Shown here in pieces: positions 3,757-55,665 of a stretch of DNA of 64,000 nt. The number at the start of each line of letters is the position of its first letter. The stretch's first letter is position 1. Origin of the DNA: Bacilli bacterium (GTDB lineage Bacteria; Bacillota_I; Bacilli_A; RFN20; CAG-826); NCBI GenBank assembly GCA_024399115.1, contig JAKSHZ010000001.1, positions 23,801-87,800 of the forward strand, in the 5' to 3' direction. The translations under genes and the position numbers were made by a program. The notes beneath the pieces were generated by a model. It had not been told where the DNA came from, did no database searches, and saw nothing but the letters and a program-made list of their open reading frames with translations.

Positions 3757-4293
3757 ATGACAAAGTCTAAAGAGAGAATAACAAAGATTACAAAGAAAGG
3801 AGCATTTAACTTTGCACTTAATGCTGCTTATTCTGCAATCAAATACAATGAAGAATCTTTTTTCGACAGTACTACCGGCTCAAATATAGTATTCATTATT
3901 GAAAGTGTAACAGGGTTAACTTTTGAAGTCTTTAGAAAAATGGTGCTTGAATCATTAGATTATGAAAATAAGTTTGACTACGATACCGTTGTCAAAGACG
4001 CAAAGACTTTAAGTATTAAAGAGCTTGCCGCTAAACACGAATGTTCTTATGAAGAAATGAGATATTACCTGATTAGTCGCAATATCAAATACAATAAGAC
4101 AAACCCAAAACTTACACAAGAAAGAAATACTGAAAAGATTAAAGACACTGCTATCAGATTAAACGGTAAATACACCTTATCAGAACTTTCGAATATCGTT
4201 GGTATTCAGTACTCATTCGTTAAAGAAATATGTCTTCGCTATGGACTTCCATATCGCAAGACTGCAAGGAATCGTGTATCAGTAACCCCATAG
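3757..4293 (+). CDS. tandem-HTH-like hypothetical protein; stop displaced by the IscB insertion
   Basis: Two HTH-like segments (SIKELAAKHECS, TLSELSNIVGI); last codons lie inside the element end. Confidence 0.55.
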   Translation: MTKSKERITKITKKGAFNFALNAAYSAIKYNEESFFDSTTGSNIVFIIESVTGLTFEVFRKMVLESLDYENKFDYDTVVKDAKTLSIKELAAKHECSYEEMRYYLISRNIKYNKTNPKLTQERNTEKIKDTAIRLNGKYTLSELSNIVGIQYSFVKEICLRYGLPYRKTARNRVSVTP

Positions 4294-4510
4294 CTAAAGC
4301 TAGGGGCTTGTAGCCCTTTACTGACTAGACTGAGTGATAAGCAGTGTTACTGCTTTGAACTACGTTATCTGTAAATGTATAGACACCAGTGGATGTAATA
4401 CCTAGTCCACTGCTCTGTGGTAAGTGATTAAACAAGACTGAGAGGTAGGTCTAGTGTTGCTTACAAGAAACTACAGATAACATTGTCTAAGGTATTCAAC
4501 TCTAACATAC
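4278..4510 (+). ncRNA. IscB omega-RNA (HEARO-like) scaffold
   Basis: ~240-nt non-coding stretch upstream of iscB with typical segments (GACTAGACTGAG, CTACGTTA, CTAGTCCACTGCTCTG, AACATTGTCTAAGG) and many stems. Confidence 0.85.
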
Positions 4511-4526
4511 AGGAGAATTTAAAATT

Positions 4527-5762
4527 ATGGTGTATGTATCAAATATTGAAGGTAAACCGCTGATGCCTTGTAAAGAGGCAAAGGCGAGGCATCTTTTAAA
4601 AGACGGCAAAGCAATCGTTGTAAGAAAAGAACCTTTTACAATCCGTTTGCTTTTTGAAGTGGATAATGTAACGCAAGAAGTTGCATTGGGAATTGATGCA
4701 GGTTCTAAACATATCGGAGTAAGTGCTACTACTGGTAGGAAAGAATTATATGCAGCAGATGTTGAGTTGAGAAACGATATCGTAGATTTGATTTCTACTA
4801 GACGTAAATATCGTAGAACTAGAAGGAACAGATTGCGTTATCGTAAGCCTAGATTCAATAATCGTGTTCACTCCAAACATAAAGGATGGCTGGCACCAAG
4901 TATCGAACAGAAGATTAACTGTCACTTAAAGATAGTTGAAGATGTACACAAGATACTTCCTGTTTCTAAGGTAATTGTTGAAGTTGCTTCTTTTGATATT
5001 CAGAAGATTAAGAATCCTAATATCGAAGGAAAGGAATATCAGCAGGGTGAACAGTTAGGATTCTGGAATGTAAGAGAGTATGTTCTGTTTAGAGATGATC
5101 ATACTTGTCAGTGCTGTAAAGGTAAATCTAAGGATTCAATTTTGAATGTACACCATATTGAATCAAGAAAGATTGGAGGAAATTCTCCAAACAATCTGAT
5201 TGCTTTATGTGAAACCTGTCATCGTGGTTATCACAAAGGAACTGTTAAGTTACCTAAGAACATTAAACGTGGTATGTCATTTAGAGATGCCACGTTTATG
5301 GGAATTATGAGATGGACTTTCTGCGAAAGATTAAGGGCTATATATCCAAATGTTTCTATAACTTACGGATATATAACAAAAAATACTCGCATAGAGAACA
5401 ATCTTCCTAAAGACCATTACATAGATGCTAGGTGTATAAGTGGTAATCCATTAGCTGAACCTTTAGGTTATGTCTGGTATATGAGAAAAGTACGCAGACA
5501 TAACAGACAGATTCATAAGGCTAAGATATTGAAAGGTGGTGTTAAAAAACTTAATCAGGCTCCTTATTTAGTTAAGGGTTTTAGATTATTCGACAAGGTA
5601 AAACTTGATAATAAATCTTGTTTTATCTTCGGTAGACGGTCTAGTGGTTCATTTGATATCAGAACTCTTTCAGGAGAAGTGATATCAAGATGTGCCAATA
5701 GTAAAAAATTAGAATTGATATCCAAAAGAAATGGATATTTATCAGAAAGGAGAAATGCGTAA
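4527..5762 (+). CDS. iscB: IscB RNA-guided endonuclease
   Basis: PLMP motif, RuvC-I GIDAG, arginine-rich bridge helix (RRKYRRTRRNR), RuvC-II IVE, HNH (HHIESR...NNLIALCETCH), RuvC-III DHYIDA. Confidence 0.95.
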   Translation: MVYVSNIEGKPLMPCKEAKARHLLKDGKAIVVRKEPFTIRLLFEVDNVTQEVALGIDAGSKHIGVSATTGRKELYAADVELRNDIVDLISTRRKYRRTRRNRLRYRKPRFNNRVHSKHKGWLAPSIEQKINCHLKIVEDVHKILPVSKVIVEVASFDIQKIKNPNIEGKEYQQGEQLGFWNVREYVLFRDDHTCQCCKGKSKDSILNVHHIESRKIGGNSPNNLIALCETCHRGYHKGTVKLPKNIKRGMSFRDATFMGIMRWTFCERLRAIYPNVSITYGYITKNTRIENNLPKDHYIDARCISGNPLAEPLGYVWYMRKVRRHNRQIHKAKILKGGVKKLNQAPYLVKGFRLFDKVKLDNKSCFIFGRRSSGSFDIRTLSGEVISRCANSKKLELISKRNGYLSERRNA

Positions 5763-5811
5763 ACTTCCTCCCCATAGTTAAAACTAGGGATTTCCGTTTA
5801 CGCTACTTCGT

Positions 5812-16774: not shown

Positions 16775-16934
16775 AATATAAGCCTCAGTAATTCATCATT
16801 CAATTGTTTATACAACCTATCCGTTGTTAATGGCTTTATTGAAGCACCCCATAGCTAAAGCAAGGGGTTTTACGGCAACATCTGATAATGCAGAACCTTT
16901 CCCAAAGGTCTTCAAAATCAGTTATCTGTTTCAT
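16771..16934 (-). pseudogene. small gene interrupted by an IS200/IS605 mini-element
   Basis: Removing 47 bp gives MKQITDFEDLWERFCIIKPLTTDRLYKQLNDELLRLIF*, coupled to both neighbours. Confidence 0.55.
16838..16884. mobile_element. 46-47 bp IS200/IS605-end mini-element (single hairpin)
   Basis: ACCCCATAGCTAAAGCAAGGGG is nearly identical to the IscB-element end hairpin; flanked by ATAA. Confidence 0.7.
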
Positions 16935-19689: not shown

Positions 19690-19850
19690 CTGCTACTTAA
19701 AATATGGACAAATATCCATATCAAGAAAATTACTGTTTCACCCTGTATGTTTTTGAAAACTAGAGTTTTCTACTCACAAGTTCTTGTACAGTCCACAGTC
19801 GTAAATTCCCGACTAACCATCGGTACATAGTCTATATGACTTGTTTATGC
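19690..19850 (-). ncRNA. TnpB omega-RNA (reRNA) scaffold
   Basis: Structured non-coding stretch 3' of tnpB (TATGTACCGATGGTTAGTCGGGAATTTACGACTGTGGAC...) running to the element end. Confidence 0.7.
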
Positions 19851-21020
19851 CAGTTTATAGACTTCTAAATCTCTCAAATTAAGACTTGCATTAAAATCCC
19901 TGTCATTTTCATATCCACAATCACATTTGTACCAGCGGTCTTTAAGTCTTAAGTCTGACTTAATAGCACCACATTTATGGCACATCTTTGATGATGGAAA
20001 GAATCTTCCAGCAACTCTAACTTCAATCCCAAGTTGATTGCATTTAGCAGTAAGTTTTTCTCTGAATGTATAGAAATTCTGCTCTGCAACTGCTTTTGAA
20101 AGATGTCGGTTCTTCATCATTCCTTTTACATTCAAATCTTCGATTGTTACAAACTGTGGCTTGGTTTTCACCACTTCTGCAACACAATGATTTATATAAT
20201 TGGAGTGGATATTATTTATCCTCTGATGAAGTTTCTGTACTTCAAGTAAGTTTTTCTGGATATTCTGTCTAGTAGCTTCTCCATTTTTATTGCGTTCTTT
20301 TAATGCTTCGTATTTTCTCGAAAGCGAACGCTGTTTTCTTTTAAGCTGTTTATTCAGTTTTCTCACAACGTGAGTTTTATTGATATTCTTAAAAACTCTG
20401 CCGTCACTAAGAACTGCAAAGTCTTTAAGACCCAAGTCAATTCCAATGCCTTCACCTGTCTGTTTTACTTTCTGAAAATCAGACTGTTCAACTAGAACTG
20501 AAACATAATATCTACCAGCTTTTACCGATACAGTTCCACTTTTAATAATGTATATATCAGAATTGGTTGGTATATACCCTTTCTCTTTTAACTGAACCCA
20601 TCCAAGTGTAGGTATCTTAATCCGATGTCTTTCACAAGGAATGATTGCTTTTGAATCTGTCTTTACGAAATACATCTTTACATCAGATTTTCCTTTCTTC
20701 TTGAATTTTGGAAACTTTGCCTGTTTTTTAAAGAATTTCTTGAAAGCACTTTCTGCATCCATAATTGACTTCTTTGCAGATTTAGAACTCACTTCCTTAA
20801 TCCATGAATAGTCAGAATTAGAAGGAATGAAATCATTATTAAGCCACTTTGAGAAATCCATACCGCTTACAAACTTCTTTTCTTTTTCATAAACTTCTTT
20901 GTTATGAGCAATATAGAAGTTGTAAATAAACCTGCAGATTCCGATTGTTTTATGAATCAAAACTTTCTGTTCTTCAGTAGGATTAATTTCTGTCTTGTAT
21001 GCTCTTAGCAATTTCTTCAT
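19845..21020 (-). CDS. tnpB: TnpB RNA-guided endonuclease
   Basis: N-terminal RAYKTEINPT HTH, RuvC GIDLG / IEDL / DRDFNA, zinc finger CHKCG...CDCG. Confidence 0.95.
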   Translation of the reverse strand: MKKLLRAYKTEINPTEEQKVLIHKTIGICRFIYNFYIAHNKEVYEKEKKFVSGMDFSKWLNNDFIPSNSDYSWIKEVSSKSAKKSIMDAESAFKKFFKKQAKFPKFKKKGKSDVKMYFVKTDSKAIIPCERHRIKIPTLGWVQLKEKGYIPTNSDIYIIKSGTVSVKAGRYYVSVLVEQSDFQKVKQTGEGIGIDLGLKDFAVLSDGRVFKNINKTHVVRKLNKQLKRKQRSLSRKYEALKERNKNGEATRQNIQKNLLEVQKLHQRINNIHSNYINHCVAEVVKTKPQFVTIEDLNVKGMMKNRHLSKAVAEQNFYTFREKLTAKCNQLGIEVRVAGRFFPSSKMCHKCGAIKSDLRLKDRWYKCDCGYENDRDFNASLNLRDLEVYKLA

Positions 21021-21092: not shown

Positions 21093-21302
21093 TCAAAAGA
21101 GTTCGTTCTGACCTGACATTTCTTCCTCAAACATCTTCTTGTTTCGTTCGGAAATAGTTCGGTCAACCATCTTTTCCAATTCCAGTCGATGTTTATCTTC
21201 TGGACCCGGAGTTATGTAAGAATGCTTGCTAAACCACTTCTTCTGTAAGTCTCGCATTTCTTTCACAACACGAATGAACTGATCAATTGTTGTTATCGCC
21301 AT
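21093..21302 (-). CDS. small hypothetical protein, leaderless
   Basis: TTGAAT-18-TATAAT-6 nt-ATG; VKEMRDLQKKWF motif. Confidence 0.65.
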   Translation of the reverse strand: MAITTIDQFIRVVKEMRDLQKKWFSKHSYITPGPEDKHRLELEKMVDRTISERNKKMFEEEMSGQNELF

Positions 21303-21308
21303 AAGTTA

Positions 21309-21437
21309 ATTATACATCCGATAAATTCGGTGATTCAAGATATAATTGCAAAATACTTTATATTTTAATTTCTTTTTAAGTTATTTTTTATTTTTAACTA
21401 CTTGTTTTTTGGAATTTATCGGATGTAAAATATTGGT
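21309..21437. promoter_or_regulatory. divergent leaderless promoters sharing GAATTTATCGGATGTA
   Basis: Identical 16-mer in inverted orientation at about 21312-21327 and 21412-21427. Confidence 0.7.
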
Positions 21438-21881
21438 ATGAAATAATACGCAAAATTAGGATTTGTTAAAAGTAAATCTTCGACAACTTCTTACATTTTG
21501 GCATCTAAGGTGGGAGAAGTTAAAGGTCTGAAACTGGGTGTTTATAAAGACACTGCTGCAAATCAGGCTAAGGGTGTGGTTGGTTCTGAATACATTCGTT
21601 TCTCTGTCCCAAGAGAACCAAGTATCAGAAAATACTTCGCACATACATTCGAAAATGCTGACGGAGATGTTCTTACCAGTACAGAAGCTCTTGATGATAA
21701 CAACAGAACATTTGGTGATACAAAACGTATCGGTTCCAAAGATTTAATTCTTATCGAGTTTTCTGCTGATATGGAAACATTAATGATGTACTTCATTAAG
21801 AATAAAGGCACTGACAGATGGACAAAGCAGAACGCTTTTAGAGACTGGGTAAACGGAGAGCAGTTGATTGCAGAACGTTAA
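21438..21881 (+). pseudogene. hypothetical gene with a nonsense codon at position 3
   Basis: Promoter-aligned ATG AAA TAA, then an open frame to 21881. Confidence 0.55.
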
Positions 21882-21906
21882 CTACGAACTAGTTTTAAGC
21901 GAGTAT
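21878..21906 (+). promoter_or_regulatory. putative late promoter (TTAACTACGA-N13-GAGTAT)
   Basis: Exact 10-mer copy; no ORF downstream. Confidence 0.55.
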
Positions 21907-21913
21907 TAACACA

Positions 21914-22043
21914 GACTTCGTATGAAGCTTTGACAATTGAAGAAATCCCACATCCTTCTTGAGTTGTTAAAAACTCTTTAATCCCTAAGAGTAAATCACG
22001 ATGTGGACCAGAAATAGTGTGATTTATTTTTAGGGATTTTTTA
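21914..22043 (+). ncRNA. candidate late small RNA with a loop-loop pseudoknot
   Basis: Four hairpins; 20-bp stem with G-U pairs; loop CCACATC complementary to loop GATGTGG; U-tract end. Confidence 0.55.
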
Positions 22044-22073
22044 TTTCTCTTCGGGAGGGGAAGTATAAAAAGT

Positions 22074-22346
22074 TTACTTATATTGCTGCAATATATTATC
22101 TATTGTTTCAATAAGTTCTTTTGTTTTATCTCGTTCAATACCCGTTACGAGATATTCGACAGTAGTTCCAAGTTCTTGAGCAAGTAAAAATACTTCATCA
22201 GCCCTTGGGAGATTACCATATCGCTTACAACTTTTGTAAGCATCCAAATTGATATCTAACTTTTTAAGAGTATCTACTAAAGTTAGATTCTTTTGCTTAA
22301 GTAATTCTTTCACTCTTTCATAAAAACTTAAATATTGTTCATTCAT
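22074..22346 (-). CDS. CI-like XRE-family repressor
   Basis: HTH ending LPRADEVFLLAQELGTTVEYLVTG; divergent from the lytic operon; likely leaderless start at 22346. Confidence 0.85.
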   Translation of the reverse strand: MNEQYLSFYERVKELLKQKNLTLVDTLKKLDINLDAYKSCKRYGNLPRADEVFLLAQELGTTVEYLVTGIERDKTKELIETIDNILQQYK

Positions 22347-22366
22347 ATTTATATTATCGGAATAAA

Positions 22367-22458
22367 AAGAGTTATTTAACACTATTTTTTTATAAAAATT
22401 TTATTGACAAGAGTTTTATAACCCTGTATATTATATTTATAAGAGTTATATAACTCTT
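22367..22458. promoter_or_regulatory. three repressor operators overlapping a rightward sigma70 promoter
   Basis: Perfect palindrome AAGAGTTATATAACTCTT (22441-22458), variants at 22367 and 22409; TTGACA 22404 with 17-nt spacer to TATATT. Confidence 0.85.
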
Positions 22459-22484
22459 TGTATTAAAGAGAAAGGAGTTGGTAT

Positions 22485-23177
22485 ATGAAAACAAACGTTA
22501 TTATGGAATCCGTAAAAGACAGAGAGTTATTCGGAGTTATTATTCATCAAAATACAAAAGACTCTATGTTATCTCTTACAGATTTGCAAGAAGCCTACAC
22601 TCATGCACGAGTACTTAATGGTTGGAAAACAAAAGGAGAAATTCAGCACATTATTAATGGACAGGAAAATGCTGAACGAATCTATTATGTCCTCTTTGAG
22701 CAAAAATTAATAAATTGTGAATATTCTCAATTTATGGATATGGTTAAGAAAAATGGAATGGTCAAAGTATTAAAAGAGTTTGGAGTATATCGAACAACAG
22801 GTAGAGGCGAAAACAAAAAATCTGTATGCAATCCTTATATCTGGGTATTAGTTGCAATGGAATTAAATCCAATGATGTATGCAAAAGTTGTAACTTGGCT
22901 TACAGATACTCTCATCTTAAATCGTATTGAAGCAGGCAATTTCTATAAAGAATTATCATCTGCCTTATACAAACTTCCAGAAAAAATAGATTATCCAAAA
23001 CTTGCAGAAACCTTAAATATCAAGGTTTTTGGAAAACATGAATTAGGAATTAGAAATAAAGGTAGTAAAGAAGAACTTGAAAAACTTTATATTCTCGAAG
23101 CAAATATTGCTTTTGCGATTAATAAAGGCTACTTGAAAACTCAAAATGATGTAATCAAAGCAATATCAGAATACTAA
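22485..23177 (+). CDS. KilA-N domain protein (antirepressor-like)
   Basis: MKTNVIM...IHQNTKDSMLSLTDL...NPYIWVLVAMELNP pattern. Confidence 0.75.
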   Translation: MKTNVIMESVKDRELFGVIIHQNTKDSMLSLTDLQEAYTHARVLNGWKTKGEIQHIINGQENAERIYYVLFEQKLINCEYSQFMDMVKKNGMVKVLKEFGVYRTTGRGENKKSVCNPYIWVLVAMELNPMMYAKVVTWLTDTLILNRIEAGNFYKELSSALYKLPEKIDYPKLAETLNIKVFGKHELGIRNKGSKEELEKLYILEANIAFAINKGYLKTQNDVIKAISEY

Positions 23178-23624: not shown

Positions 23625-23923
23625 TGATGAGCAAGTTTACAATTAATTTTGGAGAGATGGAATACAGTCAGATGATTAATGACGTTGATTATTTGGCGTA
23701 TACATCAGGTGGATGCATTAATGGTGAAGCAGACCTTATTGGAGATGAACTTAAAAATGTCCAGTCTGTAGAACTTATTACTGACATCAACTTCTCACAA
23801 TATGATGAAACAGTTGAAGCGTATGTACCTTGTGAATTTGTAAATGAACTTTATCAGAAGTTCTGTAACTACATCTTATCAGAATGTACAAAGAATAAAT
23901 CTAAAGTAAGGGTGATAGCATAA
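23615..23923 (+). CDS. hypothetical protein
   Basis: ORF coupled to the replication gene; start may be a few codons later. Confidence 0.55.
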   Translation: MEVMMSKFTINFGEMEYSQMINDVDYLAYTSGGCINGEADLIGDELKNVQSVELITDINFSQYDETVEAYVPCEFVNELYQKFCNYILSECTKNKSKVRVIA

Positions 23924-24831
23924 TGGCAGAAACAACATTTATTCGTACTAAAAAAGATAGAGATTTTACTCTTTTAGATAACACTTTTTTAAGAGACCCA
24001 AATCTTTCTGCGGCAGCCAAAGGTGTATTTGCATACTTACTCTATTTACCAGAAGACTGGGTAATCTATCAGTCTGAATTAAAAAACCATTTCTCTAACG
24101 GAAGAGATTCTTTAAGAGCAATCATTTCAGAATTAGAAAGATTTGGATATATCATTAAAGAAAAAAATAGAACTGAAACAGGAAAGTTTAGTGGTTATAA
24201 ATATCAAATTGTAGAAAAGCCTGAACCATGTAGTATTAGCCGTGACGGGTTTTCCGCAGCGGCTAAACCGAAATCGGAAAATCCGACACTACTAAATACT
24301 AATAATAACCAAATACTAAATAAACTAAATACTAATACTACTAATACCCCTTCTCCATCTGAAATTGAATTACAGAAAAAACTGGATGAAGCAAACAAAA
24401 AGATTGAGGAACAAGAACAGACCCTATCTAAGCTCAATAAGAAAACCAAGAAGTCTGATACAACTACTCTTTGTGAACCTGACTTCTACACTTCTTTGCT
24501 TAATGCTTACAAAAAAGTTTTCTTCTCAGTAAGAAAATCTGGTGTTCCTTGTACCAAAGATTACAAGAAGTATGTTGATAAAGCATTACTTCGACTCAGA
24601 GAATTGGGTCTCTCTGATAATGAAGCACACGACAGAATGCTTGAAGCAATTAATAATGCTCCAACATTAGATTATTGGGTAAACGAAGCAAAATGTGCAT
24701 TCGCTTACATCGTTTCAGATTATGGTTTAAGTAAACTATGTGGCTCTTCACAGAACTTGAAAAAAGGCGGCGGTAGTGTCGTGGCACAGAAAGGGAATGG
24801 AGAGTTTGATGAATTAGGCATACCGTTTTAA
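23923..24831 (+). CDS. phage replication initiator (wHTH)
   Basis: FTLLDN.FLRD.NLS.AAKG..AYLL.LPEDW...ELERFGYI; upstream of loader and helicase. Confidence 0.85.
   Translation: MAETTFIRTKKDRDFTLLDNTFLRDPNLSAAAKGVFAYLLYLPEDWVIYQSELKNHFSNGRDSLRAIISELERFGYIIKEKNRTETGKFSGYKYQIVEKPEPCSISRDGFSAAAKPKSENPTLLNTNNNQILNKLNTNTTNTPSPSEIELQKKLDEANKKIEEQEQTLSKLNKKTKKSDTTTLCEPDFYTSLLNAYKKVFFSVRKSGVPCTKDYKKYVDKALLRLRELGLSDNEAHDRMLEAINNAPTLDYWVNEAKCAFAYIVSDYGLSKLCGSSQNLKKGGGSVVAQKGNGEFDELGIPF
24288..24347 (+). repeat. A/T-rich ACTAAATACT-type repeats inside the initiator gene (possible origin)
   Basis: Several copies of (A)CTAAATACTAA in the linker-coding region. Confidence 0.45.
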
Positions 24832-25912: not shown

Positions 25913-26361
25913 GTATAGACCTTACTGAACTTGAAGCATTCTGTGAAACACATACTTGTACAGAAATAATTAACAAGTATGGCAGACAAGGTTATATCTT
26001 GTGCTTGAATAATAACTTTGAGCACAAAGATAGCAGAGTTAAAATCACAGATGAATGGCTTGATGAATTAAGAGAGTTCTGTAAAACACATTACAGACAG
26101 GAAGTGTTAAATAAATACGGTAACAAGATTTGGTATTACTTGAAAAAATATAATATCAGAACTTGTAAGAAACCGTATAAAATTACGAAGATTCGGAATG
26201 ACGAGTTTTCAGATGAAGATGTTTTAGATATCTGCATCGTAAGTGGATATCAGAATGGGTTAACAATTATGCAGTTGGCAAAAGCCTTTCAGGTTTCACC
26301 AAATCACATTAATTACTTGATCCATCGTTGTAAAAAAATTGAGGAGTACTTATATGCCTAA
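25909..26361 (+). CDS. HTH-containing hypothetical protein
   Basis: Repeated EL..FC.TH motif and C-terminal HTH (TIMQLAKAFQVS). Confidence 0.55.
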   Translation: MSIDLTELEAFCETHTCTEIINKYGRQGYILCLNNNFEHKDSRVKITDEWLDELREFCKTHYRQEVLNKYGNKIWYYLKKYNIRTCKKPYKITKIRNDEFSDEDVLDICIVSGYQNGLTIMQLAKAFQVSPNHINYLIHRCKKIEEYLYA

Positions 26362-27637
26362 TAATTATATTAATGAATCTTATGAAAGAGCCTTGCTCGG
26401 ATGTATGTTGCTTGATAATTCTATCATCGATGAAATTTCACATCACTTGGAAAAAGTAGCATTTTGCGTATACAAAAATCAGGCTATCTATGACCAAATC
26501 TGTACTTTGTATCTTGAAAACAAACACGTTGATATTCTTGCTCTTACTCAGAGATGTAGAAATATTGACCCATCTTATATTGCAAGTTTAACAGATATCG
26601 CTTCTTCAGCAAATTACAATTTCTACTTGGAAGAAGTTAAAAAGTTATATCTTGCTCGTGACTTGAAAAATGAAGTTGTAGAAAAACTCAGCACTCTGTC
26701 TTCAGATAACGTAATTGAAACTATCCACTCAATTGATAGTCAGCTCACATCTTATATGACTTTTGAAAAGACAAAACCTTTGTCTCTCAAAGAAATGTGT
26801 GTTCCATTTACAGAAAAATTATCTGAAGTTATGAAAACAAAACCTGAATATCTCGGAGTTGATACAGGTTGGAAAAATCTTAATGATATTCTTGATGGAT
26901 TACAGAGTGGTAAATTAGCAATTTTAGGGGCGAGACCTTCTGTCGGTAAAACAGCCTTTGCTCTTCAGCTGGCCTCAAACCTTTGTCGTAATAACATTCC
27001 AACTGACATTGTATCATTGGAAATGTCTGCTCAGACATTGATGAACCGTATGGTGTCATTTGAAACTGGTATCCCTATTTATTACCTTACACACGGATTA
27101 ATTACATCATCAACTATGATGGGTAAACTTAATGTGGCAATGAATAGACTTTTCAACTACCCAATGAACATTCACGATTCAGGTATGGAAAATGAACAGA
27201 AACTTTATTCATTTATTCGTACTCAGGCAAAACTTTGTGGAACTAAAGTATTTATTGTGGACCATATTGGTTTAATCAGACATTCAAATGCCAATATGAA
27301 ACGTGTTGAACAGTTGGATGAAATCACAGATAAACTTGCACACTTGGCAAAAGAACTTGATGTTACAATTGTTTGCCTTTGTCAGCTTAAACGTGATGCA
27401 GAAGGTAAAGAACCTACACTTTCAGATTTGCGTGATAGTGGTGCTATCGAACAGAACGCAGATATCTGTATGTTCTTGCATCGTAATCGTGCAACCGGCA
27501 ATGAAACAGAAATCCCTTCAAAGATAATCGTAATCAAACATCGTGATGGTGCTTGTGGTACTGCGGATATGATTTTCTATCCAAAATTGACTAAATTTGC
27601 CGAATCTAGTGACGATTTCAGTAAAAATGCCGCTTAA
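26354..27637 (+). CDS. dnaB: replicative DNA helicase
   Basis: GARPSVGKT, SLEMS, VDHIGL, DLRDSGAIEQNAD, KHRDG motifs; GAGGAG RBS before ATG 26354. Confidence 0.95.
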   Translation: MPNNYINESYERALLGCMLLDNSIIDEISHHLEKVAFCVYKNQAIYDQICTLYLENKHVDILALTQRCRNIDPSYIASLTDIASSANYNFYLEEVKKLYLARDLKNEVVEKLSTLSSDNVIETIHSIDSQLTSYMTFEKTKPLSLKEMCVPFTEKLSEVMKTKPEYLGVDTGWKNLNDILDGLQSGKLAILGARPSVGKTAFALQLASNLCRNNIPTDIVSLEMSAQTLMNRMVSFETGIPIYYLTHGLITSSTMMGKLNVAMNRLFNYPMNIHDSGMENEQKLYSFIRTQAKLCGTKVFIVDHIGLIRHSNANMKRVEQLDEITDKLAHLAKELDVTIVCLCQLKRDAEGKEPTLSDLRDSGAIEQNADICMFLHRNRATGNETEIPSKIIVIKHRDGACGTADMIFYPKLTKFAESSDDFSKNAA

Positions 27638-28577: not shown

Positions 28578-29702
28578 ATGAATAAACGACCCTTTTATCT
28601 TACCAAAAGAAAGCTCGCTTCTGGTAAAATAGTATACTATTTTTATACTTATGACAAGTTTGGCAACCGTACTGTTCCACAGTCTACTGGCTGTTCAAAG
28701 AAAACAGATGCCTTTAACTATTGTAGCTCACTTTTCAAAAAAGGCAACTTAACAAATCAAAATGTTAAGTTTAAGGTTTATGCTGCAAACTTTTTTGATG
28801 AAGAAGAACGATGGTATAAAAATAAAATGGTAGAAGGTGGTATTACAGAAAATACTGTAACCACTTATCAGATTAATCTGAGAAAATACATCATGCCTTA
28901 TTTCGGAGAGATGTATATTGATAAGATCACAACCTCAGATATCAAAGCATACAGAATCCATCTTACAGAATCAGGTCTGTCAAATAAGTCTATTAATAAC
29001 TCAGTAAACATCATTCGTATTATTTTTAATTATGCAATGGAAGATGATATCATTTATAAATCTCCAGTAAATAAAACTGTTGCATCATTGAAGGTAGAAC
29101 ATAAACGAGAAGCATTTACGGATGATGAATTGGATTATATTTTCAGCAATTATTTTGAAGATGAACGTTATTATTTATTCTTACTTCTTGGTCCATTAAC
29201 TGGTATGAGATTTTCTGAAGCCTTAGGTCTTACAAGAGAAAATATCAAAGACGGATATATTGAAATAACTCATCAGTATAACAATAACAAGATTAAGGAT
29301 ATTAAGACTAAGGAAAAAAGATTTATTACAATTCCAAAGAAACTGGAAGAAATGTTACGCAAACAGGTTGGTGACAGAACTTTTATATTCTCACAGAAAT
29401 TATTAGATATACCGATTGTAGAGTCTACAACAAGGCGAAATTTGTATAATTACTACAATTTTGAGATGTTGAGACGAAAAAAAGAGAACCAACTGACATA
29501 TCACTCATTCAGATATTATCTTAATACTTTACTATTATCAAAAAATATTCCAAAGTACAAAGTCGATTTTGTAATTGGTCATTCAGAAGGAAAAGGAAGT
29601 ATGACACAACTCTACACTACTTGGAAACCTAATATGTACGATGATGTACTGAAGGTTCAGGAAGAATTGTTAGATAGATTACTTAGTTTACGAAAGCGAT
29701 AA
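28578..29702 (+). CDS. int: tyrosine integrase
   Basis: TGMRFSE (R), KTK (K), HSFR (HxxR), IGHS (H), LY (Y); SAM-like core-binding region. Confidence 0.93.
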   Translation: MNKRPFYLTKRKLASGKIVYYFYTYDKFGNRTVPQSTGCSKKTDAFNYCSSLFKKGNLTNQNVKFKVYAANFFDEEERWYKNKMVEGGITENTVTTYQINLRKYIMPYFGEMYIDKITTSDIKAYRIHLTESGLSNKSINNSVNIIRIIFNYAMEDDIIYKSPVNKTVASLKVEHKREAFTDDELDYIFSNYFEDERYYLFLLLGPLTGMRFSEALGLTRENIKDGYIEITHQYNNNKIKDIKTKEKRFITIPKKLEEMLRKQVGDRTFIFSQKLLDIPIVESTTRRNLYNYYNFEMLRRKKENQLTYHSFRYYLNTLLLSKNIPKYKVDFVIGHSEGKGSMTQLYTTWKPNMYDDVLKVQEELLDRLLSLRKR

Positions 29703-34589: not shown

Positions 34590-34633
34590 AATAGACTATT
34601 TATTGACTCTTTATGGAACTTGTATTGACCTCT
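34590..34633. repeat. four degenerate 11-bp direct repeats
   Basis: AATAGACTATT / TATTGACTCTT / TATGGAACTTG / TATTGACCTCT. Confidence 0.45.
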
Positions 34634-34929
34634 GGATATTTACTTGGTTTAATATTAAGTAAAGAAAGAATTTGAGTTGCATTTTCTCTGTTCTCAATCC
34701 ATTTGTACAACTTCTTGATAGAACGGTGTAATGCTTTACTTACTGAGTTTTCTTCGATTACTAGTAAGTCTGCACATTCTTTAAGAGAGAGTCCTTTTAC
34801 AAATCTTGTGTACAAAACTTCTCTCTCCCTTGCAGACAAATTAGAACTGTCGATTAAATCATAAGACTCTTTTCTTCCTAATGTGCTGAAAAGATTTTTA
34901 CAGAAAATAAATTCGTTTGTCATTTTCAT
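34600..34929 (-). CDS. sigma70 region-4-like HTH regulator
   Basis: LSAREREVL.TRFVKGLSLKECADLL...SVSKALHRSIKKL; GAGGT RBS before MKMTNE. Confidence 0.75.
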   Translation of the reverse strand: MKMTNEFIFCKNLFSTLGRKESYDLIDSSNLSAREREVLYTRFVKGLSLKECADLLVIEENSVSKALHRSIKKLYKWIENRENATQILSLLNIKPSKYPEVNTSSIKSQ

Positions 34930-34979
34930 AATGCTTACCTCTTTTGTAATTAAATCTATAAGCAATATTATTTATTATT

Positions 34980-48084: not shown

Positions 48085-51000
48085 TTACATTGTGTATCTT
48101 CTACCAGAATTGTTTGCTTCACGAGCTGCAAAAGCACCATCAACTTCACCATTAGCAACCGCTTCGTTAACAACTGCAACGATTGTTGCTCTGATATCAA
48201 GTTCTCCATTTGGTCCTTCACGCTGTTCTGTTTTACCAACCTTAACTCTATCACCAGCTTCATTAACGATTGTGATATTTACATTTCCTCTACCACCTGC
48301 TAATGAACCCGGAGTTTTTGTTGCAATTAAGTAATCATCAGGAGCAGTTGTAATAACCTTTCCACCCGGAGCAATAATAGCATCGTTTACACTCTGATAA
48401 GATAAGTCGTATCCTCTATCAATTGCGTTTTCGTGACGGAGATTTTTCTCGTAGTATTCAGCATCTGTTTTAGCCTGTTCAAGAAGGTCCGCAAGCATAT
48501 CTTTAAGATTCTTGAGACGAGATTCTTTATCATCCTGTTCGTCATCTTCAAACATACCGCTTATTAATGATGCAATACCACCTACACCTGCCATTGTAAG
48601 ACCGGCAAATACCATTCCCCATTCACCTTTAAGGGCAGCCTGTCCTGCAATTGTAAGGCCTGTCTGAATCATTGTAGAACCGATAGTTCCAAATATGTTA
48701 GCACCAATCTGTTTCCAGCATTTAGCAATTTCTTCTGAACCTGCACTCATGTCATCAATGTATTTACCCATTGTCTTGAATGTATCTGCTACACCACTGA
48801 ATAATCCTGATGAAAGTGAATCCGTGATTGAGCCCATTGCATCATCAAGCATTCCAGAAACAGACTTCTTAAATACTGCAGAATCAATTTTCTTGAACAA
48901 GTTAAATGATGTTTCATCCCAAGTGTTCTGTTCATCGAAATCTTCTTGAGTGATTTCACCCTTACTTAACTGATTTTTCAAAGCTTCATACTGTTCAAAC
49001 TGGCTACGGAGATTTTCTTGAGAGAATCCTAAGCTAGTAAAGAAATCAGAAGCATCTTTGTTGTTAATCAAGTTAAGGATTGTGTCCTGATAGTTCATTT
49101 CACCAAGACCAAGCTGATTCATTAAGTTCTGTTCTACAAAACTATTAGAACCAGTTCTTGTAGAGTTGATCGCAAAATCAGTTCCGAGTAAGAAACTATG
49201 TTCATATTGACCATTTAATACCTGATTAGTAATGCTATTTTCATTGAACTTATTAACGAATTCCAACTGTTTAAGTGCTTTAGTATTCTCATCAGTTGCA
49301 ACGTAATTTTGATAAATTGCAAGCATTAAGTTATCTTCTGCATTAATCAGTTCAGAGCTATTATCAATAATAGCCTGTGCCTCTGCATCGGATAAAACTT
49401 TTGATGCTTCATTGAACGCCCTATTTGTAGCATTCTGATTAGCAAATAACTTTTGAATATAATCATTACCGACAGCATAAGATACAAATGCACTCCAAGC
49501 CTTAGCATCAAGTTCTTTGTTAGAATGCATTGTATCAAAATCTCCACCGAAAGCAGATCTTTGATATTCACTAATTTGATTAAACCATTTTCTATATTCT
49601 ACTTCTGTTGCAACCTGTGCGGCCTGATATGCAGCCTTAGCATTATTATATCTTTCCTGTTGCTCTGATGTGGCACTACCTTTTTTAAGTTCAACGCTTT
49701 CCTGCTGAGATTTAGTCATTTCAGCCGAAGTAACAAGATTTTTGAAACTTTCATCATCAGTGAACAGTTTGAGAATATTTCTAACTTGGAATTTCTCGTT
49801 TTTAGCGAGTTCTTTATATTCATCTTTGTTAAGAGTATCAGTAAGTTTATTTGTGAAATCTTTGACTGTCGCTGTATCCCAACCTTTGAATGCACCTTTC
49901 TGAGCACCACCAGCCATAACACTAAGTTCAACTGATAATGCATCTGTAGATTTAGATAATTCATCAATCTTAGACTTGAATTCAGATAATGCACTAACTG
50001 TCTGAGTTAACTGAGTCTTCTGGTCAAGTAATGCTTTTGCGGCAGTTGTAGCGTTTTCACGCATTTTGATAAAGCCGTTTTCATTTGTGAAAAGAACATC
50101 ATAAGCATTGGCATCAGTTGCTTTAATGCTATTGGCAAACTCACCAAGATGTTTCTGATATTCTGGATCATAAATATTTGCTCCATCTTCCATTGTTGTG
50201 AATGAACTAGCGAGGAATTCTCTTAATGAGTCTGTTTCTTCTTGTAATGAGCTTGCATAAGCCTGAGTAACTTCTGTAGCAGATGTTAAACTCATTGCAA
50301 ATGACTGGAAGTTCTTAGCAGTTCCTTCCCAATCAATTGAACTTGTATTATCTCTTGAGTTGTTACCAGTTGAAGTTTTCTTACCAGTATAAGCGATTCT
50401 TGTTCCACCGTTTACAGAGAATACATCTGCAACTGACATATTATTAAGCATTGCTCTTGTAATATTCTTTACAGAGTTTTTCTGAGCCTGTTTTGCAAAG
50501 AGCTCTACAGCTTGGTCTCCTCTTGTAATCTGACCACTTTTGAAGTGCTCAAGGTCCACTCCAAGAGTTGAATTAAGAATACGCTGCCATAAAGGATATG
50601 TATCTTTACCTTTAGTCTGATGTGTTTCATCCCAACTGCGAATGTTACCAGCCTTTCCATATCGGCTAACTAAATATTCTGGTAACTGAGTAGCTAGAGA
50701 ACTATTTCTTTCTGCAAGCCTACCTAAAATCTTTTCATATCCCTCTGCAAATGTTCTATAATTTGCTTCTGTATTTCCTTTCATAGAACCATCTGCATTA
50801 AATAGATATGATTGTAATGCAGTTATTACAGCATTGGTGAATGCATCTGCTTGGATACTAGAAAGAGACATTACTTTAGCCCCTAAATCTTCCCAGTTCT
50901 TTTGGTTCGCTTCTTTAATTCTTTCCTGTTCTTCTTCTGTTTTACCATAGAATAATTCTGGTATATCATTAACGAAATTTTCAGGAACCATCTGAACTTG

Positions 51001-54000
51001 TTCAAGAGGATTAATAATACCAGAGTCAAGAATCTCACCAAATGTTTCCAAACTTAAATTAAGACCAGATAAAAGAGTTCCTGAATCATCAATCAGCGGT
51101 GCTAAACGTTGATATGCTTCATAACCTTTATTCCACAATTCTTTTTCTTGGTCTTCAGTGTATTTTTTGCCAGCATCTGTTTTGAGCCATTCCTGTTCAG
51201 ATTTTTGACCAAGTTTATACAAACTAGAATCTTTCTTAAAAGCATTAGTCTGGACTCTATCCCATGCCTTAGCAGCAATATCTTCAATATTAAGATAGAT
51301 TTGCTGGAACTGGAATTCTAATCCTTTTTCAGCTTCTTTCTTCTCAATTGCAGTTCTACCATTTTCGAAATAATCAATTCGTTTTTGATAAAACTCTCTT
51401 GCATTTTTTCTTCCCTCTTTTGATGCAAGATCAACTCCGTTTAGAATAGCATATGGATTCGTTTTTGCTAATTTGTTTACAATGAAATTTAATGGGTTAA
51501 AATCTTGAACCTCATCAGGTAATGAAGCATAATATTTTAATGCATTGTTACCAAACTTGTGCCAACCTCTTGTAGCACCACCTAAAGTTACGATTTGATT
51601 AAATCTCTGTAAACCTGCACTTTCACTACCAATAGTATATGAATCTAATGTTTTTCTAGAGTTTCTGTAAACTTCGGCCTGTAAAGCTCGTTTTTCAGAA
51701 ATGGTGGTTAATGCATTTAACTGATTAATTCTTTCCTGAATTCTTTTAAGTTCAGTTTCTGATGCCCCATCTTTCTTTTTTCTATCATATTCTTCTTGTA
51801 ATGCTTTAAGTCTGTTTTCACGAATTTCAATCATTTCAACATTGTGGTCAATATTTCTTAAATGTGCCCAATCTTGTAATCCGTTAAAAAGACCTTCTTT
51901 AATTTCAAGGAGATTTCTTCCGATAGAATCATTTTCACCGTGGTCGCCAATGTTTAATAACATCTGACCAAATTCTGCCTGAGCAAGTTGTTTTGCATCC
52001 TGTAAGTTCTGTTGTCTTGCTGCCCATGTCTTAGAACCAATATTTACAGCATTATTAAACATACCGCCGGGTCCAGTCATATTCTGGAAAACCTTTTCAA
52101 TGATGTTAGAAGTAATTTTACCTTCTTCTGTCATCTTACGGATCTGTTCAACACCTTTACCAAGTTCTTTGGAAAGTTCAGCATAAATAGGAATACCTGC
52201 AGTAGCAAACTCTCTTAATTGTCTTGTAGTTGCTTTTCCATTTGCTTCAATCTGAGCAAACGCATTTGCGATATTACCAAACTTCTGTTGGTTACCACCA
52301 GCAACATCTCCGATTTGTTTAAGAGTATCCATTAAGTTAGAAGCATATACACCAGACTGCTTTAACTGAACTGCAAAAGAAGATACAGTTTCTACACCGA
52401 AAGGTGATTTTACAGAATACTGTGCAATATCATTAAAAAGTGCATCTGCCTGAGACTGCGAACCATATACAATTCCGAGGTTTGTTTTTACAGTTTCAAT
52501 TCTTCCGAATGCTTCAAGAGATTCTTGAGAGAATTTTATAACTGCCTTAGTTGCATCTGTAATAGCCTTACCAAATGCTCCTAAACCTACTGCTTTTAAT
52601 GTACCAGACTGTCTATATCCAATATTTGCTAAGAGACCTGTTAATCCTGTTCTCTGTCTATATCCTGTTGCTTTATTAAATAATGTCTGTTCAAAACTTG
52701 TTTTATAACTTCCTGTTGCTTCAAAACGCTTAAACATTTCTGCCTGTTCCTTCGTTCTGATAGGAGCATATCTAGCTTGATCATATAACTTCTTTCGTTC
52801 TTCTGCAGACTGTTTTTGAGCATTTGTGGCCTCTGAAGTAGATTCCTTAAATTTTGACATTTCAGGATTTAATTCAGACATTATGCTATTAAGTTTTTCA
52901 AGAGTCTTTTGATATTCTTCTTGATTTAATGTTACCTTCTGAGATAATTCAATCTTTTCATTTTCTGAAATTGTGCTATCATTTAACATTTCCTGATACT
53001 TTTTGAGTTGATTATTTAATTCTTCAAAAGTACCAAGTAATCCAGATGCTTCTTGTACAATAACAGTATCACCTTCTTCATCCTTGCCATATACTGTAAA
53101 GTTTCCGATTTTTTTAGTATCTTCTCTATTATTAAACTCAAATGCTTTTTGGCGTTCAGCGATTGTCGAGAACTCATTTTTAGCAATTCTGTTAATATCA
53201 CTAAGATTCTTGATAAACTCACGATAAGTTGTTCTAAACTCAATCATAAGTGCATCATCTTTAGCACTGTCTTTTTGAATTCTATTAACTGCAGATTCAT
53301 ATCTGTCAAATCGAACATCATTTTGTCTCTTTGAGAATTCTTGTCTGTCAATTCTATCTAAGATACTAAATTCTTCTTTATCCTTCCAATTAATTACATC
53401 AGAGAAAACACCAGCTCTTCTAGAAGCTTCATTAAGCATATTAGATTTCTTATCTGCCAACAATTTTGTATCTTCAATAATCTGCTTAAGTTCATTCTTC
53501 TGAGCCTCGTATTCTTTAAGGGCTGTTGAAGCCAATGGGTCACTTGAATTTCTAAGTTTTTCCATATTGGCATCAAGTCTATCTATTGTTGATTTAATAT
53601 TATCAACATTCTTAATTGCAGCAATAAGACTTGTAAAAATCTGTGCATCTTTATCAGAAAGTAAACCTAAAACTTTACCACTAGTTTCTTCTACAACTCG
53701 ATGTTCGCCAGATACCTTACCGAGATTCCAAGGGTCTTTTGTAGCAATGATATTATCAGCATCATCAGTAACATAAGCACGACCATCTTTTGTAAGAATC
53801 AAGTCATTTACACTTTGAATACTCTTTAAGTCTGGAGAAACTAAATAAGAATCAGGAGATACAGAACTGATCTTTTTAGACTGTTCTTCAATATTTGTTG
53901 CAAGATTATTTAAGCTGGTTGTTACTTTTTCTGTAGCAATTTCAAATTCTTCTTCTTCATCTTCTAAATCTAAGTTGTATTCATCATTTAATAAGTCATC

Positions 54001-55665
54001 GTCATCATCTGAACTTGAAATCCCAAGTATATCTTCACGATGAGTAATGGCTTCTATGAAATTTTCTGCAACATTACGTAAACGGTCTTCTGTTAATAGT
54101 TGGCCATCATACAAGTCGCCATTGTGAGTCTTGAAGTCATCAACTATCCCCTGAATTGATGTAGTTTGTGGAGAACCAGTAGAGTGACTATCAATAAAGG
54201 ACTGAACTTTATTAATAAAGTGTTCTGTATATGTTTTAAATAGAACTTCAGGGTCCATTAAGCTAATTTGCTGTTCAGCAATTTGCTTAAACTTTGTGAC
54301 TGGTGTCGCAGATGACAAATTAAATTGTTTTAAAATGTTAGTGTAAGTCTCGTTATCTACACCCTTTTCGATTTGGTCTATTGCATTTTTAAATGATTCT
54401 GTATAAGTTTCGAAATTAGTAACAAGTTGATCAAAAACTTTTTTAAGGCTTTCTCCATTACTATTAAGAAATTCTTCGGCATCTTCTGATAATGGTGTTG
54501 TATCAGTAGGAGTCTTATCCATACCTGTAAAAAGTTTTTCATACAAACCTTGAAGTCCTGTAAAATCATTACTAAGCCCCTGAGAAATTCTTGATTCTTC
54601 TCTTTGAATTGTTTCAACTAAATTAACAATTGATTTGCCAAGTTCTGTAATATAGGTAATGTTCTGATAGTTTTCACGTAAGGTTTCATTTTTAGTAGAT
54701 TGTTGACCTGTTGGTCCTACACCATCAGTAACACCTACAAAATCAACAGTTTCATATCCTCTTTTATAAGCTAAAGCAGAAATTTCATCTGTTATCTTTG
54801 GTGTAAAATCACGTACTACCCCTTGAAAATTATATCTATCAGAAAAACTTCTAAAATCATCAGGGTCATTATTAATTTCATTAAAGATTTTACTCATTTC
54901 GATCAAATCTTTAGTTATTTTACGGCGTTCTTCTAATGTTTTTGTAGAATCATAAACTTGTTTTTCAAGTTCTTCAAATTCTTTAATCCAGTTAAGAGTG
55001 TACTCTCTTAATTTTGTACCTTCTCTTCCAAAGTAATTTAAATTATCCCATTCATATCCTTGAGAATCATTTACAACTAACTCATTACGTGGTAATGCAT
55101 ATCCTTTCGCAATATCTCTTCCAGAATGCTTAAAATATTGTACCTGTTCAAAGTCTTGAGACCAATATCCACCAGAATCTAACCACTCTCCTGTTCTACC
55201 ACTTCTTACACCATGCCCATAGGCAGGGTCCTGTTTTTGACCTGTAGGAGTTTGTCTATCTCCGGCACGATATTCAAGTTTTGCACCTTGGTCTAAAAGA
55301 GATTGAATAGTATCTAATTCTTGATTATATTTTGTAGAAAAATCTTTTAACTGCTGGTCTAAAGTATTACTAAACTCAGCAATTGCATTAATATTACCAT
55401 CATTATTTTTAAGAGAATCGTAAGTCTTTTTTAACTGTTCAATTTGAGTAAGAGCTTCTCGAATATGTTCGTTGTACTGTTCTTGTGCTGCAGAGTTCTT
55501 AATTAAACTTGCAGTATTACTGTCTAAAGAGTTTTTTTCTGATTCAAATGACTTCTGTGCATCATTTCTTAACTCACCAGCCTCTTCTTTTGCAACCGCA
55601 TTTAATAAATCAGCACTTGCATTTTCAATTAAATCATCTGTTTCGTTTTCAAAGTTTTCAGACAT
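48085..55665 (-). CDS. tail tape measure protein with a long N-terminal extension
   Basis: Tape-measure domain (SPFGV...IGDVAGG...GIPIY.EL...GKITS) near residue 1080; follows the tail chaperones. Confidence 0.9.
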   Translation of the reverse strand: MSENFENETDDLIENASADLLNAVAKEEAGELRNDAQKSFESEKNSLDSNTASLIKNSAAQEQYNEHIREALTQIEQLKKTYDSLKNNDGNINAIAEFSNTLDQQLKDFSTKYNQELDTIQSLLDQGAKLEYRAGDRQTPTGQKQDPAYGHGVRSGRTGEWLDSGGYWSQDFEQVQYFKHSGRDIAKGYALPRNELVVNDSQGYEWDNLNYFGREGTKLREYTLNWIKEFEELEKQVYDSTKTLEERRKITKDLIEMSKIFNEINNDPDDFRSFSDRYNFQGVVRDFTPKITDEISALAYKRGYETVDFVGVTDGVGPTGQQSTKNETLRENYQNITYITELGKSIVNLVETIQREESRISQGLSNDFTGLQGLYEKLFTGMDKTPTDTTPLSEDAEEFLNSNGESLKKVFDQLVTNFETYTESFKNAIDQIEKGVDNETYTNILKQFNLSSATPVTKFKQIAEQQISLMDPEVLFKTYTEHFINKVQSFIDSHSTGSPQTTSIQGIVDDFKTHNGDLYDGQLLTEDRLRNVAENFIEAITHREDILGISSSDDDDDLLNDEYNLDLEDEEEEFEIATEKVTTSLNNLATNIEEQSKKISSVSPDSYLVSPDLKSIQSVNDLILTKDGRAYVTDDADNIIATKDPWNLGKVSGEHRVVEETSGKVLGLLSDKDAQIFTSLIAAIKNVDNIKSTIDRLDANMEKLRNSSDPLASTALKEYEAQKNELKQIIEDTKLLADKKSNMLNEASRRAGVFSDVINWKDKEEFSILDRIDRQEFSKRQNDVRFDRYESAVNRIQKDSAKDDALMIEFRTTYREFIKNLSDINRIAKNEFSTIAERQKAFEFNNREDTKKIGNFTVYGKDEEGDTVIVQEASGLLGTFEELNNQLKKYQEMLNDSTISENEKIELSQKVTLNQEEYQKTLEKLNSIMSELNPEMSKFKESTSEATNAQKQSAEERKKLYDQARYAPIRTKEQAEMFKRFEATGSYKTSFEQTLFNKATGYRQRTGLTGLLANIGYRQSGTLKAVGLGAFGKAITDATKAVIKFSQESLEAFGRIETVKTNLGIVYGSQSQADALFNDIAQYSVKSPFGVETVSSFAVQLKQSGVYASNLMDTLKQIGDVAGGNQQKFGNIANAFAQIEANGKATTRQLREFATAGIPIYAELSKELGKGVEQIRKMTEEGKITSNIIEKVFQNMTGPGGMFNNAVNIGSKTWAARQQNLQDAKQLAQAEFGQMLLNIGDHGENDSIGRNLLEIKEGLFNGLQDWAHLRNIDHNVEMIEIRENRLKALQEEYDRKKKDGASETELKRIQERINQLNALTTISEKRALQAEVYRNSRKTLDSYTIGSESAGLQRFNQIVTLGGATRGWHKFGNNALKYYASLPDEVQDFNPLNFIVNKLAKTNPYAILNGVDLASKEGRKNAREFYQKRIDYFENGRTAIEKKEAEKGLEFQFQQIYLNIEDIAAKAWDRVQTNAFKKDSSLYKLGQKSEQEWLKTDAGKKYTEDQEKELWNKGYEAYQRLAPLIDDSGTLLSGLNLSLETFGEILDSGIINPLEQVQMVPENFVNDIPELFYGKTEEEQERIKEANQKNWEDLGAKVMSLSSIQADAFTNAVITALQSYLFNADGSMKGNTEANYRTFAEGYEKILGRLAERNSSLATQLPEYLVSRYGKAGNIRSWDETHQTKGKDTYPLWQRILNSTLGVDLEHFKSGQITRGDQAVELFAKQAQKNSVKNITRAMLNNMSVADVFSVNGGTRIAYTGKKTSTGNNSRDNTSSIDWEGTAKNFQSFAMSLTSATEVTQAYASSLQEETDSLREFLASSFTTMEDGANIYDPEYQKHLGEFANSIKATDANAYDVLFTNENGFIKMRENATTAAKALLDQKTQLTQTVSALSEFKSKIDELSKSTDALSVELSVMAGGAQKGAFKGWDTATVKDFTNKLTDTLNKDEYKELAKNEKFQVRNILKLFTDDESFKNLVTSAEMTKSQQESVELKKGSATSEQQERYNNAKAAYQAAQVATEVEYRKWFNQISEYQRSAFGGDFDTMHSNKELDAKAWSAFVSYAVGNDYIQKLFANQNATNRAFNEASKVLSDAEAQAIIDNSSELINAEDNLMLAIYQNYVATDENTKALKQLEFVNKFNENSITNQVLNGQYEHSFLLGTDFAINSTRTGSNSFVEQNLMNQLGLGEMNYQDTILNLINNKDASDFFTSLGFSQENLRSQFEQYEALKNQLSKGEITQEDFDEQNTWDETSFNLFKKIDSAVFKKSVSGMLDDAMGSITDSLSSGLFSGVADTFKTMGKYIDDMSAGSEEIAKCWKQIGANIFGTIGSTMIQTGLTIAGQAALKGEWGMVFAGLTMAGVGGIASLISGMFEDDEQDDKESRLKNLKDMLADLLEQAKTDAEYYEKNLRHENAIDRGYDLSYQSVNDAIIAPGGKVITTAPDDYLIATKTPGSLAGGRGNVNITIVNEAGDRVKVGKTEQREGPNGELDIRATIVAVVNEAVANGEVDGAFAAREANNSGRRYTM

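Follow-up and report, generated by a model that had tools for sequence, protein, structure and literature searches.

The stretch of DNA analysed here (the window, 64,000 nt, C1:23801-87800 of a 2.13-Mb assembly in 189 contigs) contains a temperate, tailed phage, and between two convergent genes of its immunity region lies a unit that probably encodes a genuine late small RNA, so far undescribed, whose loops make a kissing contact within the molecule. A gap of 192 nt separates the + strand ORF, which stops at 21881, from the - strand HTH gene, whose stop is at 22074, and no ORF of at least 20 aa exists on either strand in 21885-22070. An undescribed non-coding RNA had been proposed at this place in an earlier note, and the non-coding stretch, the strong terminator and the lack of an Rfam family match agree with that proposal. 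The parts of the locus are as follows.

21438-21881, + strand: gene of the 146-aa family (profile match 21438-21869, with one TAA inside)
21878-21887, + strand: motif TTAACTACGA, on the -35 side, overlapping the TAA stop (21879-21881) of the upstream ORF
21901-21906, + strand: -10-like hexamer GAGTAT, 17 nt after TTAACT
21914-22046, + strand: predicted non-coding RNA of about 130 nt, proposed from its fold, with no ORF and no Rfam family
21916-21927, + strand: 5'-proximal 4-bp hairpin CTTC-GTAT-GAAG
21929-21971, + strand: long hairpin with 10 outer pairs (21929-21938/21962-21971) and 5 inner pairs (21940-21944/21956-21960), present in the minimum-energy and centroid folds
21948-21954, + strand: CCACATC in the apical loop of the long hairpin, P(unpaired) 0.96
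21961-21965/21972-21976, + strand: alternative small hairpin GAGTT/AACTC, which competes with the 10-bp outer stem
21980-22038, + strand: terminator hairpin with a stem of 20-21 bp and a 19-nt loop (22000-22018)
22000-22006, + strand: GATGTGG in the terminator loop, exact complement of 21948-21954 over 7 nt
22039-22046, + strand: U-tract TTTTATTT, directly after the terminator stem
22074-22382, - strand: convergent, repressor-like HTH regulator (phrog_8 at 2e-8, phrog_4 at 3.5e-5)

The hairpins named in the earlier note, the 20-nt stem with two G-U pairs and the U-tract were all found where it had placed them. Its set of hairpins needs one correction, that GAGTT/AACTC is replaced by the 10-bp outer stem in the minimum-energy fold. 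The inner stem of the long hairpin (AAGAA/TTCTT) carries an 11-nt apical loop, ATCCCACATCC, at 21945-21955. The inverted repeat of the terminator (21980-21999/22019-22038) is 20 nt long and 90% complementary as DNA, and its two exceptions are G-T oppositions, which turn into G-U pairs on the + strand only. The + strand folds at -42.2 kcal/mol (z -5.53), and none of 200 shuffles was as good. In contrast, the - strand folds at -31.9 kcal/mol (z -2.54), and 4 of 200 shuffles were as good. The + polarity claimed for the RNA therefore holds. In the minimum-energy fold, the molecule consists of two rods of about 16 and 20-21 bp with an 8-nt joint at their bases.

The 3' element has the form of an intrinsic terminator, a stable hairpin with a U-tract immediately behind. 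Among the 4817 hairpins linked to a U-tract in the 2.13-Mb assembly, a crude script ranks it 16th by stability. The consensus terminator scan takes loops of 3-8 nt only, so the hairpin at 21980-22038 with its 19-nt loop does not appear in it. No Rfam model reaches its gathering score at the locus, and of all 4227 families run on 21300-22500, the two with any hit up to E 10 were tsr26 (E 1.4) and 6A (E 8.6). Iterons or direct repeats, which bear on readings of the locus as an origin, an attP or a packaging site, were not seen there.

The earlier note had also pointed out the exact complementarity between GATGTGG in the terminator loop and CCACATC upstream, and this is correct. A 7-nt match to anywhere upstream was obtained in 702 of 20000 shuffles. 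When the partner had to lie in a hairpin loop of the refolded shuffle, the count fell to 9 of 4000, a post hoc figure, as the site was picked for this feature. In the minimum-energy fold, G22000 pairs with U22018 and a weak 3-bp helix takes up part of GATGTGG. Freeing the terminator loop costs 2.9 kcal/mol versus -9.1 kcal/mol for the loop-loop duplex. The complementary loops suggest a kissing contact within the RNA, and their sequence alone cannot tell pairing in cis from pairing in trans.

The motif at the 5' side of the unit, TTAACTACGA, has 14 copies in the assembly, as compared with 17 occurrences of a reversed control pattern. Contig C1 (182 kb) carries 10 of the copies, 6 of them within the window, and the remaining ~1.95 Mb carry 4. 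All 10 copies of C1 are located within C1:2,886-101,497, every one is oriented toward the sequence behind it, and nine are followed by an ORF start 36-118 nt downstream. For example, the copy at 55719 precedes the tape-measure ORF (2526 aa), which starts at 55665. The copy at 21878 had been singled out as the one among six in the window without an ORF behind it, and it proved to be the sole one of the 10 in C1 without such an ORF (at least 20 aa). Two copies come directly after a hairpin plus T-run. The hexamer 17 nt downstream of TTAACT, which was taken as -35-like, has T at position 6 in 10/10 copies and A at position 2 in 8/10, against a background of 0.34 (T at position 6 by itself) and 0.10 (the two jointly). 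A fixed spacing of 17 nt and a position upstream of and co-oriented with genes are features of a sigma-70-type, phage-specific promoter class, for which promoter activity is predicted. The phage also encodes a protein with sigma-70 region 4 only. The motif enrichment and orientation, the -10-like hexamer at 17 nt and this protein together suggest that TTAACTACGA is a phage-specific promoter element, and the transcription start at the unit is predicted at ~21913-21915.

The region-4 protein and the other phage genes that matter for the unit are listed below.

23923-24831: DnaD-like gene
26339-27637: DnaB-like gene
28578-29702: integrase
34600-34965, - strand: 121-aa LtrA-like protein with sigma-70 region 4 only (Sigma70_r4_2 at 4.8e-9, above the cut-off)
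48085-55665, - strand: tape measure, 2526 aa
C1:93467-94051, just outside the window: Terminase_6N large terminase (match 6e-16)

The 121-aa protein is probably the factor that serves the TTAACTACGA promoters. LtrA, a family of small region-4 proteins, is one of four late-activator families in phages of Gram-positive bacteria (PMC3753634). A pattern search of IMG/VR with the region-4 protein as anchor found no relatives. The 'late' promoter of the earlier note stands as a repeated, phage-specific promoter-like element. The word 'late' is deduced from the sigma-70 region-4 protein and from the kinds of genes behind the motif (tail, tape measure, lysis), and one copy serves a 228-aa ORF without PHROG or Pfam match, just upstream of a phosphoesterase and an SbcC-like gene. 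Two one-mismatch variants of the motif, TAAACTACGA, are located at C1:94584 (-) and C1:3337 (-) with a -10-like hexamer at equal spacing; they may widen the promoter class, and one of them is just upstream of the terminase region. The leader after the copy at 59464 contains ACATCTCTA ... TAGAGATGT and then seven T (window 59375-59420, - strand), a terminator-like site between promoter and gene, which is not chosen in the minimum-energy fold of the 91-nt stretch.

Tail genes, an IstB-like gene, Rad52, SSB and a CHAP lysin are also present in the window. The GC content is 34% for the window, 35% for C1 and 35% for the other contigs. The first bases of C1 are repeated by its last ~38 bases, and C1 may be circular at 182 kb. 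It also contains a 2-kb repeat of 84-87% identity with copies ~80 kb apart (C1:101575-103522 versus 181100-182044 plus 1-1061), so C1 may carry two related elements or be joined at a repeat. Two known RNA families were met elsewhere in the window. A full-length HEARO RNA (4278-4500, +; 126 bits versus a gathering score of 83) immediately precedes a 411-aa HNH-endonuclease ORF (4527-5762, +), forming an IscB-like unit within the phage, and its first 25 nt recur right after the HNH ORF (5769-5793) and 11 kb away (16846-16870) with 80% and 92% identity, respectively. A 391-aa transposase ORF of phrog_506 (19845-21020, -), which we take to be TnpB-like, is followed after 46 nt by a RAGATH-18 RNA (19730-19799, -; 68.7 bits versus a gathering score of 44.9). 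This pair is located ~0.4 kb to the left of the 146-aa gene.

Downstream of the unit, the stop codon of the HTH gene is 28 nt past the U-tract. An RstR-family model matches the regulator at 9e-6, which is below its cut-off. Divergent promoter-like sites are found at 22381-22432, including a near-consensus TTGACA-17-TATATT at 22404-22432. The - strand version of the terminator hairpin is weaker and has its T-run displaced. The predicted 3' end of the RNA is at ~22046 and the repressor stop at 22074, and an overlap of the two transcripts would need a repressor 3' UTR that reaches the hairpin.

Upstream of the unit, codon 3 of the 146-aa gene is TAA (21444-21446), at a position where all homologs have Tyr; homologs P0001-P0005 start with MKYYAK.... 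The TAA could reflect a nonsense mutation or a variant, or else an error of the assembly, and public data hold both an intact version of the gene with 98% identity (P0001) and a frameshifted one (P0006). The family is rare; a word search gave 6 clusters, a set of 1.84 billion proteins contains 41 representatives, and the closer protein relatives, with 55-98% identity, come from Logan and ENA assemblies. The 146-aa protein has no match in Pfam, PHROG, PADLOC or NCBIfam, and the protein atlas returned hypothetical clusters only. Its AlphaFold model (pLDDT 86.7) gave nothing at E 0.001 or better with Foldseek against PDB and BFVD, and the best VIA-align score was Z 5.5, with profilin- and GAF-like rows tied.

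Relatives of the unit were searched for by nucleotide sequence and through its neighbors. In blastn, 21300-22500 had no match among 50,697 phage records, and a 221-nt query had short matches only (at most 38.3 bits) in 401 genomes of the family. A tblastn search against phages found none. A single 127-aa query found no relatives in IMG/VR, and the genome of the window itself was the sole match to the 146-aa family profile among 401 genomes of the order. Alignment A1 gave 0 loci in IMG/VR, 0 in GTDB contigs and one in JGI metagenomes (L021). Alignment A5 gave two loci in IMG/VR (L057 and L058), and alignment A6 gave 0 in GTDB. The proteins of L021, L057 and L058 are 44%, 42% and 36% identical to the 146-aa protein of the window, respectively. 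At L057, the next gene begins 2 nt past the stop codon, and at L058, small ORFs come after the homolog; neither has a comparable RNA. With the repressor as anchor, one 39%-identical locus (L059) was found, with a co-directional Sel1-repeat gene behind it and no analogous RNA. A 20-nt variant of the promoter pattern had 0 matches in IMG/VR, and a 16-nt variant of the motif had 34 single matches on 34 contigs, which were read as chance.

A comparable unit is present at L021, with the following parts.

2199: stop of the 146-aa homolog, followed by a 12-bp palindrome and then a TTGACA-17-TAAATT site
2294: predicted start of an RNA of ~105 nt, which ends in a 12-bp terminator with UUUCUUUUU

The 9-nt terminator loop at L021 holds AAUCGUGC, which is complementary to GCACGAUU over 8 nt, with letters unlike those of the window. 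In the fold from 2294, a 5' hairpin exposes all of GCACGAUU in its apical loop of 13 nt. An 8-nt match to anywhere upstream was seen in 141 of 20000 shuffles, and only in 2 of 4000 with the partner in a refolded hairpin loop. Because L021 was examined with the prediction already in hand, it is a fair test of the loop match. A lack of conservation of the loop complementarity in relatives had been named as grounds for dropping the idea, and L021, the only comparable unit, keeps the match with other letters. As a case of compensatory loop change, this consists of two examples only, with one relative that keeps the match and two (L057 and L058) without the RNA. The L021 fold hangs on the assumed start at 2294, and from 2280 part of the 8-mer is paired.

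The two loci have the same layout. Nothing can be aligned between the window RNA and the L021 RNA past a shared 8-mer, the order of the hairpins differs, and the promoter-like site of L021 is of the ordinary type. The two RNAs may be analogous rather than homologous. At both loci, a phrog_15937 gene is located divergently upstream, and BLASTP aligns neither protein to the other. DnaD-, DnaC/IstB- and DnaB-like genes follow downstream in the same direction at both. L021 has no convergent gene, and a tRNA and replication genes follow co-directionally. The tRNA (2572-2656, 85 nt, 180 nt after the terminator) scores 53 bits with Rfam and is not called by ARAGORN, and the stretch of 500 nt that leads from the terminator to the replication gene (~2400-2900) looks structured and relatively GC-rich. 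The terminator arms of L021 were also used as an IMG/VR query, and the one match was an unrelated, ordinary terminator.

The explanation favored here is a stand-alone small-RNA unit that uses the phage's own promoter class and acts at the repressor junction, and it is given an even chance of being right. RNA polymerase, probably directed by the 121-aa LtrA-like protein, would start at ~21914 from a promoter of the class that would also serve tail, tape-measure and lysis genes, and would stop at the hairpin and U-tract ending at ~22046, so that a non-coding RNA of ~130 nt would be released. The apical loops of the two rods would form a 7-bp kissing helix (CCACAUC with GAUGUGG), which may lock the RNA into a compact, nuclease-resistant shape. 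Because the two genes are placed tail to tail, the 3' hairpin of the RNA would be the exact antisense of any 3' hairpin of the repressor mRNA, that is, of repressor transcripts reaching it. The unit would halt transcription from the phage promoter ahead of the repressor gene, and its terminator loop could pair with the 3' end of the repressor transcript and hasten decay during the lytic programme. Since L021 has no convergent gene, the repressor-directed role cannot be the conserved function. Counted against this reading are also the single comparable relative and the two relatives, L057 and L058, without the RNA. When the RNA was scanned for duplexes with either strand of C1, no trans target stood clear of background, and the best non-self duplex was an 8-10 nt match inside an ORF at C1:~129,975. 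CRISPR-repeat mimicry was considered and rejected; the three repeat clusters picked up by a crude array finder are on other contigs, where the RNA had no blastn-short hit.

The unit could instead be a by-product. The hairpin would then be the terminator of the 146-aa gene and shield the repressor as an insulator, the promoter-type motif would be there by chance, the RNA would be a functionless run-off product and the loop match would be idle. The terminator is indeed placed where any terminator between convergent genes would be, two of the three relatives of the 146-aa gene lack such an RNA, and the simpler shuffle test gives only 702/20000 for the window. However, 100 nt of strongly folding sequence separate the stop codon from the terminator, a stem of 20-21 bp with a loop of 19 nt seems longer than is usual for plain terminators in general, and the loop match recurs with other letters in L021 (2/4000). 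This explanation is considered unlikely, while keeping some real weight. A bolder reading takes the window and L021 as two members of an undescribed phage RNA class, in which an upstream apical loop kisses the RNA's own terminator loop just after a rare 146-aa gene in the immunity/replication region, and the contact would set termination efficiency (gating via the loop, not the stem) or self-association. It is doubtful and has a small chance of being right.

The remaining two explanations were regarded as less probable still. The unit might be a gated leader of the lambda PR'-6S/StxS kind, where transcription runs from the promoter into a terminator and the read-through, its level set by a factor or by the loop contact, would go antisense over the repressor into + strand early/replication genes, and at L021 into the tRNA and replication genes. 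The replication module is downstream and co-oriented at both loci, the L021 tRNA comes soon after the terminator, and the sRNA StxS is the product of a late promoter with a terminator shortly behind it (PMC7547250). Nevertheless, a 309-nt convergent gene and the near-consensus promoter at 22404-22432 precede the next + strand gene, no antiterminator stood out among the genes named above, and the loop contact competes with neither arm of the terminator, so no switch is evident from the sequence. A gated leader is left with a slim chance. An oligomeric or structural RNA, in which the loops would pair between molecules into dimers or rings for assembly or packaging as in phi29 pRNA, is the least probable, and hardly to be expected. 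An RNA that carries two complementary 7-nt loops could pair not only in cis but also in trans, and the unit shares its promoter class with structural genes. The pRNA analogy of the earlier note nevertheless gained no support from the comparison, in which no pRNA match appeared with all Rfam families up to E 10 and the phage was found to have a Terminase_6N large terminase, a tape measure and an integrase. In addition, the unit sits in the immunity/replication region away from the head genes, and two rods of similar length with an 8-nt joint would favor pairing in cis.

Terminator loops are usually deemed inert. A functional loop contact would make this RNA a simple, mutable test case for the part that such a loop plays in RNA stability, antisense recognition or termination control at a lysis-lysogeny junction. 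A loop-gated terminator or self-association, if true, would be a principle uncatalogued for phage or bacterial terminators. Most of what is known of phage small RNAs comes from a handful of model phages, and this one would come from an uncultured gut phage with no close relative in the collections searched, together with a defined promoter class and a candidate sigma-like activator.

Several known systems resemble the unit in part. DapZ and MicL are 3'-UTR-type, Hfq-dependent enterobacterial regulators with known seeds and targets. As in these, the putative promoter is partly inside the upstream ORF, at its end, and the terminator of that gene also serves the RNA, whereas the duplex scan of C1 found no target here. 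The lambda OOP RNA, which is short and has a promoter and a terminator of its own, is antisense to cII at the 3' end and overlaps the cII coding region. Here too, a short unit faces the 3' end of an oppositely oriented gene for a lysogeny regulator, but the predicted RNA ends 28 nt before the repressor stop and its promoter class is that of the structural genes. The immunity RNAs P1 c4 and P4 CI are processed from a longer operon transcript, and through downstream targets they block translation or cause termination. They share with this RNA the short, structured form, the immunity region and loops complementary to segments of the same transcript, while here no downstream target was seen and no Rfam match was found. 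In phi29 pRNA, loop-loop pairing between molecules drives oligomerization into a ring. Loop-loop complementarity in a phage RNA is the common point, and this RNA differs by having no Rfam match, a different genome position and a temperate, tailed phage with terminase packaging.

Two further comparisons concern systems with a terminator. At lambda PR', a late-type promoter followed by a strong terminator at ~130-190 nt gives the short RNA 6S/StxS (PMC7547250). Unlike PR'-tR', the unit has no late genes behind its terminator and belongs to 10 dispersed promoters rather than one; the next gene is convergent, the later + strand genes have their own near-consensus promoter, and no Q-like factor stood out among the phage genes named. 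In par of pAD1 (RNA I/RNA II), as in other Gram-positive antisense pairs that overlap at their 3' ends, convergent units have a common hairpin terminator, and the complementary terminator loops make the first contact in a kissing complex (PMC7472228). A type I toxin-antitoxin system of the par/Fst type would have a small hydrophobic toxin ORF, and none was found on either strand in 21885-22070, where all ORFs are shorter than 20 aa. The partner here would be the repressor mRNA instead, with an overlap of transcripts that is only putative. In par, the terminator loop is the kissing site for a convergent RNA, as it may be in the phage unit, where this loop has a second candidate partner within its own RNA.
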